A stretch of 64,000 nucleotides of DNA from Nitrosopumilaceae archaeon (GCA_965203465.1 CBDBCR010000003.1:512001-576000); one strand, 5' to 3'. Shown: positions 48,401-60,400, numbered from the stretch's first letter. The notes: generated by a model from the letters alone, not told the origin. Numbers and translations are program-made.

Positions 48401-49443
48401 ATTATGGCGAGTGCTGCTCTTCGACCTGCCTCCAACTCTGCGGCCGAAAACGTCTTTTTCATGTCGTGATCCAATATGCCCTTTACGATATCCAGGAAAG
48501 TGCCGTTAGCACTCATTATTCGCGAAGCCATATTGTCTTCTAAATCTCTCGCGTATTCCCTACTGTTTGCGAAGAATGCTTCAATGTCGCGCCTTCCTTC
48601 TACCACTGCGTACGCGCTTGATCCAAATATTGCTGCAAGGTACTTTGCAGCAGATTTCCTGTTCGGATCCAAGAAAGCGGCAAAATAGTTGGTGGTAGAT
48701 GCAGACATCTTGGTGGAGTACAGGCGCCAGTCCGTGCCGTTGGTCAGTATCGACCACGTGCTATGTTTTAGCGCATCGACTGCCAAGTAGCTCGGTGCCA
48801 CCTCGGTGTCGCTCTTGCGCACGTTGAGATCGTCACGCGGAGTAACCGTTATGGATACCGTGTCGTCTATCTTTTGCGTACCGTGTTCGGGTTTTATATT
48901 CCAGCCCAGTTTCTTTAGTGCATCCCACACATTCCCAGCTGCCAAGACGCTTTCAGCGACCTTGTTTGCGTCCATCCTAGTATCATTCCATATGCGCTCT
49001 TTCAGGTAGTGGTTCTCGAAGAGACCTCGATTGTCAAAGTCCTTGGTAGCCGTCTGGAGTGCATGGATTGCTTCCTTCATGGCCACCAGCGCCCTAATCT
49101 TGGTAGTAGCGGTAGCAAAACCACAGGATGACAGAACAGCGGCGACGCGCTCGCGCTCGATGCTAGATCCGACTCTTGCGGTATCCGACAGTTTGGCTGC
49201 TTTTAACACGATTGTGTTATGAGGTGACACCAAGATGATGCACTCGGGAATGCCACGCACCGCTTTCTTGACTTCAGATATATTCTTTGGACCCTTTTCG
49301 ATCAGTATTACGGGAATGGGTGGTTTCTTGGAGCCGGCCCGCCTAAAGCCGTACGAGACCCACGTTTCGTGCAGATCGGTTTCGTGCCGATCGTCCGGGT
49401 TTACCCCCACGGCGGCCAGCAGTCCGGCCTCCGAGTGGGTCAA
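45442..49443 (-). CDS. Eco57I/type IIG-like N6-adenine DNA methyltransferase with TRD
   Basis: ILTNGTDWRLY, RKSTASYYTP, VLDPAMGSGHFL, IFGVDLNP, FFHWDLE and GFDLVIGNPPW motifs; TTG start. Confidence 0.92.
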
Positions 49444-49597
49444 AGCCCAAGGGCCGGCTGGCCAAGATCAGTACCTGAGTAATAGGTAGAACGAGGTAGA
49501 ACGAGGTAGAACGAGGTAGAACGAGGTAGAACGAGGTTTCACTCGTCAGTAGGGAGCCTTGTTCAGAGGTGATTTTGTGGTTTGGGTGTAGGGCCAT
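49343..49597 (-). other. Leader ORF (84 aa as assembled) running through the 10-bp tandem repeat and overlapping the methylase start out of frame
   Basis: ATG 49597 lies 26-33 nt below TATAAAAA (49630-49623); translation shows the repeat as TSFYLVLPRSTSFYLVLP. Confidence 0.55.
49484..49537. repeat. 10-bp tandem repeat (ACGAGGTAGA) x5.4
   Basis: AGGTAGA (ACGAGGTAGA)4 ACGAGGT, perfect copies. Confidence 0.97.
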
Positions 49598-49622
49598 TGT
49601 TACTTGGGCCTGAATTCGGTCT

Positions 49623-49630
49623 TTTTTATA
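49623..49630 (-). promoter_or_regulatory. TATA box for the leader-methylase-helicase transcript
   Basis: TATAAAAA on the minus strand at canonical distance from ATG 49597. Confidence 0.65.
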
Positions 49631-49743
49631 GATTGATGTGTGCCCTATCGAAATCCGGCCAATGGCGCCAAGCCGTCAACGAGTTCATGTCACGGTACTG
49701 TAGCACTGCCGTGCAAGGATCCGCCCCCCACCCCCGGGCCAAA

Positions 49744-57095: not shown

Positions 57096-57326
57096 CTCTC
57101 TTGGCGTGCCCGGCCGATGTTATATATCGCTTCCTAGCCGGCCTTGGCGGTCGGGCCCGCCCAAGCTCGGACAGGTCTGGAAAACGGGCTGTTCAGGCAG
57201 ACGGAGAACCTCCAGACGCACGGCAACCTGCAAGGCAGGGCATCGGTTCCGTGCAGGCATCGATCGGCTGTCCGAAGCCAAACCCGCTGTGAAACTAGAA
57301 ATATACCCGAACGGATGACGGGTTGA

Positions 57327-57386
57327 ATGTTGCAGGTTAGCTCTGTACAGCTCTGTACAGCTCTGTACATGAAGACCACCCTGTAG
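57327..57386 (+). other. Short leader ORF (19 aa as assembled) through the 10-bp tandem repeat upstream of the type ISP gene
   Basis: ATG 57327 lies ~21-28 nt after AAATATAC (57299-57306); reads MLQVSSVQLCTALYMKTTL-TAG. Confidence 0.4.
57339..57369. repeat. 10-bp tandem repeat (AGCTCTGTAC) x3
   Basis: AG CTCTGTACAG CTCTGTACAG CTCTGTACA. Confidence 0.95.
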
Positions 57387-57421
57387 GGAATCGAGCGCAT
57401 GAGCGGCCGGAGGGGGCATGA

Positions 57422-60400
57422 ATGCCTCGGCCCAGCACGTTCGACGAAGTTTTACGCGATATCAGGGCGAAGTCAAAGACGACGCGTGAACTGGGCGACA
57501 GGTTCGAACGCATCATCCTCGATGTTTTGAAAAACGATCCGTTGTACACAAACAGATTCGACGGCGTGTGGATGTGGTCTGAATGGGCCGCGAATAACGG
57601 CATCTCTGAAAAGCACGGCACCGGACATGATTTGGGAATAGACATCGTCGCAAGAGAGAGGGCCGGGGGCGAATTGTGCGCCATCCAGTGCAAATGCTAT
57701 TCTGACGACACGATACTCGAGATGGGGCCGGTGAACAGCTTCATCTCGGCCGGAACGTCGTACGGAATGAAAAACTACATCTTGGCGTGCACGGGGCCCG
57801 TAAATTCCAACGCGCGGGCAAAGCTGCTCGGCGTAAAGTGCCAGATGATGACCAAGGACGATCTGCGCTACAGGCTGGACTGGAAACAATACCCGCGCAA
57901 GATAGTGAGGCCGCCCCCCAAGGAACTCCGAGACTATCAACGCGCCGCGTTCGATGATGTCGTCAAGGGCTTCCGCAAAAGCGATAGGGGCAAGATGATA
58001 ATGGCGTGCGGCACCGGCAAGACGCTGGTTTCGCTGCGCGTGGCCGAAAAGCAGGCAGGCAAGGGCGGACTCGCGTTGTACCTCGTCCCTTCAATTTCTT
58101 TGATCATGCAGAGCATGCGGGAGTGGTCAGAGAATGCGCGCATGCCACACTACTACATGGCCGTCTGTTCTGACAAGACGGTGCGCAACTCGGAGCAGGG
58201 AACCCTGACCGAGCTGGAAGCACCCGCGTCCACGGATCCGCCAACGCTGAGGGAACGAATCTCCAAGATCAGCAAGGACTCTCTCAACGTGATATTTTCC
58301 ACATATCATTCCGTGGAGGTGGTCCAAAAGGCTCTGGATGGCCGGGAGATAGACGTAGTGTTTTGCGACGAGGCGCATCGCACGGCCGGCGTCGACGAGC
58401 CAGGCTTTGAGTCGTACTATACTCGGATCCACTACGACCGAAACATCAGGGCCGCCAAGAGGCTCTACGTTACCGCCACGCCCCGCATATACACAGAAAG
58501 GATAAAGGGCAAGGCAGAGCAGTTGGAGAAGATCACGATATCGATGGACGACGAGTCCATATACGGCCCCGAGTTCCACAACCTTTCGTTCTACGACGCG
58601 GTGCACAAGTACAAGGCGCTGTGCGACTTCAAGGTGAGGGTGGCCGTCATGGACGGCAACACAATGGACAGGCTGGTACAGAAGGCACAGGCCGGCGACG
58701 AGGCCATCATGCCGCTCGACGAAAAGACCCTGATGGCCTCGGTCTGGCACGCCATACGGCATCCGGGCGCTGACGACAGCAAGGGTATGCTCCAGCGGGT
58801 CATCATGTTCTGCGACATGATAAACTCGTCGAAGATCGTCGCCGGCGAGCAGATAAACTACAGGAAAGACATACGCGAAGATCCCGAGCAGTTTGAAAAG
58901 ACGCGCGAGATAGACAAGCAGAGATCGTTTGAGAACGTGGTAAAGCACGTGCAAAAGGTAATGGGCAACAAAGACGGCACCAAGCCCGAAACAAAACACG
59001 TCGACGGAGGAGACAGTGCTCAGGCGAGGCGGGGGCGGCTCGAATGGCTAAAGACCAGCGAAGACGATCCGCACGTATGCAGGATACTGTCCAATGCGCG
59101 CTGCCTTTCGGAAGGGGTAGACGTGCCGGCGCTTGACGGGGTCGTGTTCATGAATCCCAGGCGCTCCGTGGTCGACGTGGTTCAAGCGGTGGGCCGAGTC
59201 ATGCGCCAGTCAGACGGCAAGGAATACGGTTACGTCATATTGCCGGTCGCAATACCTGCAGGAGTCGACATAGGGCAAGCGCTAGACGACAGCAAACACT
59301 TCAAAGTAGTGTGGCAGGTGCTCAATGCACTACGTTCGCATGATCCGAATCTTGCCAGCGAAATAAACAAGCTTGTGTTGACAGAGTCGCACACAGATAG
59401 CGAAGTAACCAACCGCATCATCATACGGCACGCGTACAGCCACGGCTTGCGCTCTGCTGAGATGCCAGAACCCAAGATGATCAACGGGATCACGTCCAAG
59501 ATTATTCAAAAGGTGGGAGACATCAACTATTACGACAAGTATGGGGAAAAGCTAGGCACAGCTGCTAACACTATCGAAGCACGCATCCAAAATCGGATAA
59601 AAACCAACACACGAGCCAAGATAGAGGTAGAAAAGATTCATGCCGACCTGAAAGAAATGGTTGGAGATGCTGTCACATTTAATGCTACCGTGCAGATCAT
59701 AGCCCAGCACATCGTACTCTCACGCGTCTTTGATCAGCTTTTCTCTGGACAGTTTACTGCGCACAATCCTATAGCCAAAGTTCTAGATGTGGTAACCAAA
59801 AAGATCGGCATGCAGGAAGAGCTGCGCGATCTGGCTGGATTCTACGAAGATGTACACTACGAGCTGGACAGGATAGAGACCAGAGAAGAGCGGCAAAACT
59901 TTATCAAAAAGATATATGGTAATTTCTTCGAGAGCGCCGACAAAAAGGGTGCCGAGCGACACGGTATAGTCTACACTCCCATCGAAGTGATCGATTTCAT
60001 CATAAACAGCGTTGACGTACTGCTCAGGAAGCACTTTGGCGTGCGCTTTAACGACAGGGCCGTCAAAGTGCTCGATCCGTTCGCAGGAACCGGTACGTTT
60101 CTGACTAGATTGCTGGAATCTGGTCTGATAGATGACAACCTCTACGAGAAATACGAAAAAGACCTGTTCGCAGACGAGCTGATCCTGCTGGCCTACTACA
60201 TAGCCACGGTGAACATAGAAACCACGTATTCGAGCCTACGCAGGGGTGGCAGGTACGTTCCGTTCAAAGGGATCAGCTACACGGACACGCTGCGGATCAA
60301 CCCGCAGTACCGCGAAAAAGCACGGCACAGACATGAGCAATCCATGATAGACAGCCAGTTCAGAGCGGCGCACGAAAGGATCAGGCAGCAACGAGGATCC

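Follow-up and report, generated by a model that had tools for sequence, protein, structure and literature searches.

Phase variation of restriction-modification (RM) genes is central to the way bacteria adapt to hosts and defend themselves against phages. In phasevarions, as the relevant parts of three papers describe them, bacterial Type I or Type III mod genes are made phase-variable by units of 1-5 nucleotides (nt) lying inside the open reading frame (ORF) (PMC12707154, PMC11868660, PMC13076061). The passages on modO of Moraxella catarrhalis report a (CAACG)n array 5' of a Type III mod gene (Blakeway 2018, PMC6241649; 2020, PMC7302503), whose expression cycles with the number of units, being high at 10 and low at 9 and 11 (PMC7302503). 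In the pil1 locus of Streptococcus gallolyticus, the sections concerned describe a (GCAGA)n array in a leader-peptide gene that sets how far the ribosome reaches and relieves a terminator (Danne et al. 2014, PMC3894217). For the archaeon Haloferax volcanii, the corresponding sections report that translation of a downstream gene depends strictly on translation of the upstream one and that Shine-Dalgarno motifs serve reinitiation and not de novo initiation (Huber et al. 2019, PMC6728339); a gap of ~20 nt almost abolishes termination-reinitiation (2023, PMC10666635). Full-text literature searching, with supplements and subscription papers outside its coverage, returned no repeat-switched RM gene in archaea. 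A 2025 review of phase variation mentions archaeal loci, in the part that treats them, only as a future extension (PMC11868660), and one preprint calls contingency loci known in archaea, the archaeal citation in its passage on the subject being a 1987 paper on simple repeats. We analyzed two RM loci preceded by tandem repeats, one encoding a type IIG-like methyltransferase (locus 1) and the other a Type ISP enzyme (locus 2), in a stretch of 64,000 nt from a Nitrosopumilaceae archaeon (GCA_965203465.1 CBDBCR010000003.1:512001-576000). Hereafter, "the window" designates this whole stretch and G000 the genome to which it belongs.

Both loci present the same order of elements: a TATA box, a leader ATG, a perfect 10-bp array and the start codon of the RM gene. 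A preliminary description of this DNA had proposed this order, and coordinates and Tandem Repeats Finder (TRF) bear it out. The two arrays (49484-49537 and 57339-57369) are the only ones in the window with a period of 10, 100% matches and at least three copies. We consider it somewhat probable, judging from the sequence, that they are slippage-prone contingency loci in which the frame of the leader gates RM expression by termination-reinitiation. The best explanation appears to be that the focal pair is part of a larger group, comprising six or more such loci in this genome and many others in its relatives. What we infer is where transcription starts, that the leader is translated, that reinitiation occurs and that RM activity is affected. 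The features of locus 1 are the following:

49630-49622, minus strand: TATA box TATAAAAAA, starting 32-33 nt before the leader ATG (49597-49595).
49343-49597, minus strand: leader ORF as assembled, 84 aa, with a leaderless-type ATG; it overshoots the methylase TTG by 98 nt, out of frame.
49484-49537, no strand assigned: perfect 10-bp array, sense unit ACCTCGTTCT, 5.4 copies, 100% matches, TRF score 108.
49440-49443, minus strand: TTGA, the methylase TTG (49443-49441) overlapped by TGA (49442-49440); end of the leader in the frame obtained with one more unit.
45442-49443, minus strand: gene of a type IIG-like (Eco57I/MmeI-type) N6-adenine methyltransferase, 1333 aa (Pfam, PADLOC).
42140-45445, minus strand: gene of a PLD(HKD)-SNF2 helicase, 1101 aa (Pfam PLDc_2, SNF2-rel_dom and Helicase_C; PADLOC HKD+Snf2, 8.3e-49).

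Those of locus 2 are:

57299-57305, plus strand: TATA-like box AAATATA, its hexamer AAATAT 27-28 nt before the ATG at 57327.
57327-57386, plus strand: leader ORF as assembled, 19 codons and a TAG (57384-57386).
57339-57369, no strand assigned: perfect 10-bp array, unit AGCTCTGTAC, 3.1 copies, 100% matches, TRF score 62.
57409-57424, plus strand: Shine-Dalgarno-like GGAGG (57409-57413), then TGA (57419-57421) abutting ATG 57422; proposed reinitiation site.
57422-62149, plus strand: gene of a Type ISP RM enzyme, 1575 aa (Pfam).

The remaining geometric claims of that description also hold. Both units are free of stop codons in all three sense frames. The arrays lie 40 nt 5' of TTG 49443 and 52 nt 5' of ATG 57422, and frame arithmetic confirms that adding one unit lands each leader on the RM start, at TTGA (49443-49440) in locus 1 and at the TGA abutting the ATG (57419-57424) in locus 2. 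With one unit fewer, the leader of locus 1 ends at TGA 49470-49468, 24 nt before the TTG. Both leaders are uncoupled as assembled, one through its overshoot and the other through its early TAG, and both focal loci would be OFF under the proposed mechanism. Homologues of the locus 1 protein support its TTG start: their alignments begin at residue 4-9 counted from the TTG, and several of them begin at a TTG immediately following a stop codon.

The proposed switch would work as follows. Transcription would start ~28-33 nt after the TATA box and yield a leaderless mRNA, on which the ribosome would start at the 5'-terminal ATG. The leader ORF would run through the repeat, and the gain or loss of a unit would move the ribosome to another frame of the spacer, because no unit has a length divisible by three. 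In the ON state, the leader would end on a stop codon abutting or overlapping the RM start (TGA-ATG, TTGA, GTGA) and reinitiation would occur there. In the OFF states, the other two frames would stop at least 20 nt too early or cross the start out of frame; the uncoupled frames stop 27-58 nt early or overshoot by 98 nt. At locus 1, the methylase and the helicase-nuclease would switch jointly, because the methylase stop overlaps the helicase start as ATGA (45445-45442). The presumed nuclease partner (PLD-SNF2) would in this way be translationally chained to the methylase and, via the methylase, to the leader switch.

Promoter spacing in this genome fits the first of these steps. TATA-like hexamers peak genome-wide 28-31 nt before start codons (75 and 67 in two 2-nt bins, relative to a background of ~5-15 per bin at 14-25 and 34-60 nt), with a shoulder at 32-33 nt. 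A peak this sharp is the signature of leaderless mRNAs. Full-text literature searching returned no study of transcription starts in Nitrosopumilus. Among the array-bearing RM loci of this genome and its relatives, 18/25, both focal ones included, present a start codon 26-34 nt from a TATA-like hexamer that opens an ORF crossing the array.

We searched the whole genome with TRF for other arrays (at least 95% matches, at least 2.8 copies, period of at least 4), which yielded a list of 19. Eleven have a triplet period, none of them located at methyltransferase or RM genes, and eight are non-triplet. The six non-triplet arrays scoring at least 62 (17 bp x35, 13 bp x9.7, 16 bp x3.4, 10 bp x5.4, 10 bp x5.0 and 10 bp x3.1) all lie in, or just 5' of, the 5' end of a methyltransferase or RM gene. 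Their targets are a second type IIG-like gene, an N4/N6 methylase, an N6 methylase of 924 aa, the two focal genes and a second Type ISP gene (contig C2). The four arrays outside the window are located at C2 140543-140592 and at C3 748694-748819, 763364-763958 and 772949-773003. Near the two weakest non-triplet arrays (ATATT x4.4 and CGGGCCG x2.9), whose neighbours were seen as unannotated ORFs, we found no large methyltransferase-type ORF. Four perfect 15-bp arrays (x33, x20, x9.9 and x4, respectively at C1:677922-678418, C3:339177-339476, C3:978423-978570 and C3:921576-921635) share a near-identical unit of the CCATGGAGCCACGGG type and similar flanks, with all six frames largely open; they look like a dispersed repeat element or a repeat-protein family.

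The second Type ISP locus repeats the layout of locus 2: a TATA box, an ATG 28-31 nt further on, an array (unit GCTCTGCACG vs GCTCTGTACA) and then a spacer that can hardly be aligned. Both paralogues nevertheless have one frame layout, in which one of the frames meets a stop immediately behind the array, another meets a TAG 11-14 nt beyond it, and the third is open to GGAGGGGG-N-TGA-ATG. The 17-bp array (locus L023, C3:763364-763958) is a perfect x35 repeat of 595 bp that follows a leaderless-type ATG and 95 codons, and one of its frames ends as GTGA on a GTG start. As assembled, its leader has 302 aa, two thirds of which are repeat, and the pre-repeat part is coiled-coil in look. With E-values up to 0.1, Pfam named no family for this 95-aa part or for the 86-aa leader of the 16-bp array. 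The latter has a possibly AbrB-like look.

We then searched five RM proteins of this genome, each against G000 and 150 genomes of the family. Loci were counted when they had a locus identifier and a match starting at or before query residue 33, which gave 17, 14, 9, 13 and 18 loci for the five families (71 in total); fragments and C-terminal matches were dropped. Perfect arrays with at least 2.5 copies within 300 nt 5' of the RM start were found at 26 of the 71 loci: 7/17 for Type ISP, 4/14 and 1/9 for the first and second type IIG-like families, 6/13 for the 924-aa methylase and 8/18 for the N4/N6 methylase. Locus L019 brings the total to 27. The array-bearing loci are spread over 13 genomes and five genera, and the units are unrelated between loci. 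Their periods are 7, 8, 10, 11, 13, 16, 17 or 19, so that none of the 27 arrays has a triplet period; CGG x7, the only triplet array that this search turned up, lies within an ORF. Copy number varies: the CTCCGAG unit is present x17.9 and x8.9 in two genomes of one genus, and one 19-bp unit is present x3.2 and x10.4 in two copies in the same genome. The highest copy number seen is that of locus L090 in relative G113, where ~74-80 copies of the 7-bp unit TCCGCCC end 13 nt before the GGAGG-N-TGA-ATG of a methylase gene.

In two loci of relative G036, L028 and L048, the leader repeats coincide exactly with assembly gaps (runs of N). The gap of L028 is bordered by tracts of G23 and C36, homopolymers that we rejected as real repeats: they adjoin an N run and represent an assembly artefact. 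In L048, repeats lie on either side of the gap. Both were excluded from the counts. Short-read assemblies seem to break at such arrays, and loci of this kind are therefore under-reported in draft genomes.

Unrelated units thus recur between a leader start and an RM start in five unrelated families and 13 genomes, with periods that are all non-triplet. This recurrence argues against the possibility that the arrays are neutral by-products of slippage, without a regulatory role, in recently acquired and poorly constrained DNA beside mobile defence genes. The RM genes do lie in islands of low GC-content, as such an origin would have it (0.37-0.57 at 42-50 kb and 57-62 kb of the window vs ~0.65-0.70 elsewhere), and ON states are not enriched, both known alleles of the focal Type ISP locus being OFF. 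Coupled frames are nevertheless in excess (see below), and two paralogous Type ISP leaders retain their frame layout despite sequence divergence. We regard a purely neutral origin as improbable.

We further compared the geometry of stop and start codons to chance expectations. By a mechanical rule, the RM start was taken to be the first ATG, GTG or TTG downstream of the preceding in-frame stop, and a frame was considered coupled when its first post-array stop was located at -3 (abutting) or +1 (NTGA) of that start. The two focal loci taken alone count against the frame-gated reading: when the spacer was shuffled with the last three bases and the start kept, a coupled frame appeared in 56% of the cases for locus 1 and 63% for locus 2, so that their coupled frames are not significant, that is, not beyond chance. 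The arrays themselves cannot be due to chance. The case therefore rests on the rest of the genome and on the relatives. Across these, one frame is coupled at 17/25 loci, vs an expected 7.3 when the stop/start context is kept or 3.4 when the whole spacer is shuffled, and none of 200,000 simulations reached 17. As a background for this genome, a stop is found at -3, -2 or +1 in 200/905 long ORFs, and at -3 in 25/905. Within the Type ISP family, a stop abuts the start in 8/17 loci, two of them array-free, and because these two also have the abutting stop, the arrangement of a leader ending on the start looks older than the repeats.

Unit number was compared on contigs of four runs, not on reads. 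At position 57339, the contigs of runs X14 (276.4 of 276.4 in depth) and X12 (3.2 of 3.2, a low depth) carry one 10-bp unit fewer than the window (2 vs 3); these two runs belong to one study. Run X10 matches the window, with 0 of 105.5 in depth bearing the 10-bp deletion. The X14 contig contains 13 further differences in 780 nt. What the contigs show at 57339 is a polymorphism between strains, as distinct from switching inside one population. For locus 1, those of X10 and X12 begin inside the array at 49508, leaving the 54-nt array unbridged, and are therefore uninformative on its unit number.

Several other observations weigh against a switch governed by the leader frame. The two-unit allele of the focal Type ISP locus is also OFF, its leader being in the frame that meets a stop immediately. 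As assembled, the loci whose leader could be identified comprise 5-6 ON and seven OFF, and we rejected an enrichment of ON states (~1 in 3 is expected without selection); in this genome, four leader-type loci have their coupled frame at a canonical start, and each of them is OFF. Units free of stops are not significantly more frequent on the sense strand than on the antisense strand (23/27 vs 19/27), and strand asymmetry was rejected as evidence. The loci are not independent, and collapsing three ortholog/paralog pairs leaves 14/22 with a coupled frame. The start of locus 1 is a TTG without a Shine-Dalgarno motif, and the Type ISP starts are preceded by a strong GGAGG that could permit independent initiation. 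Finally, 8/25 arrays lack a coupled frame at a canonical (ATG, GTG or TTG) start. One of them, ISP_G168, has a stop inside its unit. In three others, L087, L108 and L110, the array frame ends on a CTG (CTGA twice, TAG-CTG once) that marks the exact onset of similarity to homologues, with no ATG, GTG or TTG available, and reinitiation may take place at this CTG; L087 is located on contig C3 of G000, 41 nt before the GTG at 773122.

Two more of these eight, MT16_G148 and MT16_G123, have a conserved TATA box between the array and the gene. Such cases would fit an action of the arrays on transcription, through promoter spacing, the distance to an upstream element, repeated binding sites or TATA-like elements, with reading frames irrelevant. 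TATA-like hexamers are likewise present in the 19-bp units of MT13_G148 and of MT13_G107a/b. The latter two are paralogous arrays that do present a coupled frame; they also carry a stop in the unit, and therefore no upstream leader could cross the array, a further difficulty for the leader-frame proposal. A transcriptional effect was also what Blakeway et al. hypothesised for modO in the passage on its mechanism (PMC6241649). In contrast, a mechanism based on spacing predicts no bias against triplet periods, which amount to 0/27 here although 11/19 arrays of the genome are triplet. Nor does it predict the excess of coupled frames, and at both focal loci the array stands downstream of the TATA and ATG pair. 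A transcriptional role is therefore unlikely in our view.

The 13-bp x9.7 array of this genome (C3 748694-748819) and the methylase body share one reading frame, with no start codon between the array and a conserved motif. This locus is of the classical in-ORF layout and, read from its sequence, would be ON as assembled; it speaks against gating through a separate leader as a uniform scheme. Extended to all loci, the in-ORF layout would make each leader the true N-terminus of the RM protein, with the single in-frame stop read through or an artefact and a fusion protein as the ON state. The leader of L030 is indeed fused in frame, and many coupled frames are the RM frame itself, one stop apart (d=-3). 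Yet at 12 loci a canonical start stands directly behind the stop, often preceded at 8-14 nt by a GGAGG-like motif, which read-through would not need. In five loci, the coupled frame differs from the RM frame (NTGA overlap), and the N-termini of Type ISP enzymes in relatives align from the ATG. As a general explanation, the in-ORF switch is very improbable.

The frame of the leader could also matter without reinitiation, if the reach of the leader ribosome unmasked a ribosome-binding site, protected the mRNA or prevented premature termination, in the manner of pil1. In the part of the study that treats its mechanism, the pil1 switch operates by ribosome reach on a terminator (PMC3894217), and modO mRNA is reported to be raised 12-21 fold with 10 repeats relative to 9 or 11 (PMC7302503, section on expression). 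In three Type ISP loci, GGAGG or GGTGG is paired with codons 2-4 in the predicted fold. These hairpins are weak (z from -1.0 to -2.4) and absent at most loci, and we did not use the hiding of ribosome-binding sites as evidence for reinitiation either. On the other side, a scan of the sense-strand interval between array and RM start with a bacterial-type consensus found nothing resembling a terminator at either focal locus, and an exactly abutting or overlapping stop and start is predicted by reinitiation and not needed for unmasking. We consider ribosome reach an unlikely account, and retain gating by termination-reinitiation at the RM start as our preferred one.

Taken against the preliminary description, the results sort as follows. 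Its question whether RM genes of relatives carry upstream non-triplet repeats is answered in the affirmative (26/71 loci and L019), as is that of a stop/start overlap in homologous loci (17/25 with one frame coupled vs 3.4-7.3 expected). The unit-number alleles that it called for were seen at locus 2 (3 vs 2, between strains), with locus 1 contigs uninformative. The coupling switch that it proposed gains from the non-triplet periods (27/27), the coupled frames, the TATA spacing and the Type ISP unit polymorphism, and loses from the 8/25 uncoupled arrays and the one in-ORF locus.

The genes under the two putative switches are RM genes of different types. The locus 1 methylase matches Pfam Eco57I (4.8e-20) and MmeI_Mtase, as well as the PADLOC models REase_MTase_IIG (1.2e-84) and DrmMI (4.6e-71). 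Its assignment to type IIG concerns the methyltransferase part, which was matched, and Pfam named no nuclease domain in the chain. Together, the methylase and the helicase match the DrmMI (4.6e-71) and DrmD (1.3e-32) models, the helicase scoring higher on HKD+Snf2 (8.3e-49). We rejected DISARM for this pair: only two genes are present, and DISARM needs DrmA, DrmB and DrmC plus DrmMI/DrmD. At locus 2, the single-chain layout of a Type ISP enzyme is complete according to Pfam: Mrr_cat_2 (5e-24), ResIII (1.7e-20), ISP_coupler (1.1e-16), N6_Mtase (3.5e-07) and Type_ISP_C (7e-78).

Several features lie beside these genes. Between the promoter of locus 1 and a multicopper-oxidase gene oriented divergently from it (49809-50819; Pfam Cu-oxidase_3 and Cu-oxidase_2), a 19-bp direct repeat (x2.1, window 49740-49778) bears palindromes of the GTTAGC-N4-GCTAAC type and has the look of an operator pair. 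The ORF at 57144-57326 was excluded from the switch of locus 2, as it sits 5' of the TATA-like box. Elsewhere in the genome, two ORFs of 581 aa (contig C1:709307-710992 and 732728-734413) match only the C-terminal third of the Type ISP enzyme (residues 993-1553), with 54-55% identity, and may be spare specificity-domain cassettes or fragments.

The genome consists of four contigs (2.26 Mb, 65% GC) and contains a total of ~25 methyltransferase-type genes. Its single 16S rRNA gene is located at 38566-40036 of the window, ~2 kb away from where the methylase-helicase pair ends and within a lower-GC stretch. This organism is a host-associated ammonia-oxidising thaumarchaeon, because the 16S rRNA gene scores higher with the archaeal than with the bacterial small-subunit model (1441.8 vs 1088.5 bits), the genome encodes an archaeal AmoA, and the sequencing runs containing the stretch are labelled as sponge and marine metagenomes or as coded organisms. 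RM genes have been reported as enriched in this group, in a paper that does not contain the term "phase varia" (PMC7848895).

A broader proposal, to which we give an even chance, is that a whole battery of RM systems, each switching independently of the others, operates in sponge-associated ammonia-oxidising archaea. Unrelated non-triplet repeats of 7-19 bp in leaderless leader ORFs would have been acquired convergently by at least five families, with a termination-reinitiation gate that sometimes uses TTG or even CTG. These would be the first archaeal contingency loci, potentially phasevarions with stochastic methylome states, and an adaptation of slipped-strand switching to leaderless mRNAs without a described counterpart. 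If this is true, symbiotic Thaumarchaeota living in a filter-feeding host with its heavy viral load would use several restriction specificities, flipping independently, as a form of bet-hedging; methylomes, and perhaps gene expression, would vary from cell to cell, which would bear on the inference of strains and of virus-host links from sponge metagenomes. It would also mean that leaderless mRNAs and termination-reinitiation are convertible into a three-state switch. The loci constitute natural test cases for reinitiation at non-ATG codons.

Each of the described systems shares part of this design. According to the parts of the cited papers that describe them, phasevarions likewise switch RM methyltransferases in host-associated microbes by slipped-strand changes in repeats, and their in-ORF layout is that of the 13-bp x9.7 locus of this genome. 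They differ in unit length and position: 1-5 nt inside the ORF in bacteria vs 7-19 nt here, mostly in a separate leader ORF. In modO, a non-triplet repeat also lies upstream of, and not within, the RM methyltransferase ORF. That system belongs to a bacterial pathogen and has a pentanucleotide unit; a transcriptional effect was hypothesised and the mechanism left unexplained, with no stop/start geometry in the sections concerned. In pil1, again from the sections that treat the switch, a non-triplet repeat in a short leader ORF alters the travel of the leader ribosome and stochastically switches a downstream gene, as would be the case here. However, the pil1 ribosome destabilises a terminator in an attenuation-like manner and the target is the pilus operon of a bacterium, whereas the loci analyzed here present a leader stop on the RM start, a probably leaderless mRNA and units of 7-19 bp in an archaeon, with no terminator-like site found at the two focal ones. 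The likeness to Haloferax, on the sections of those studies devoted to coupling, is that downstream translation needs a ribosome terminating at or a few nt from the start, with Shine-Dalgarno-aided reinitiation in archaea dominated by leaderless mRNAs; the difference is that operon partners are fixed there and the upstream frame is not variable. The claim of novelty made for these loci therefore stands as far as archaea are concerned, the literature searched containing no archaeal description, and is reduced by the bacterial precedents of the pil1 leader peptide and the upstream repeats of modO. Most likely, the kind of system is a known one, repeat-driven phase variation of RM genes, and what would be new is the archaeal lineage, the long units and the putative termination-reinitiation gate on leaderless mRNAs.

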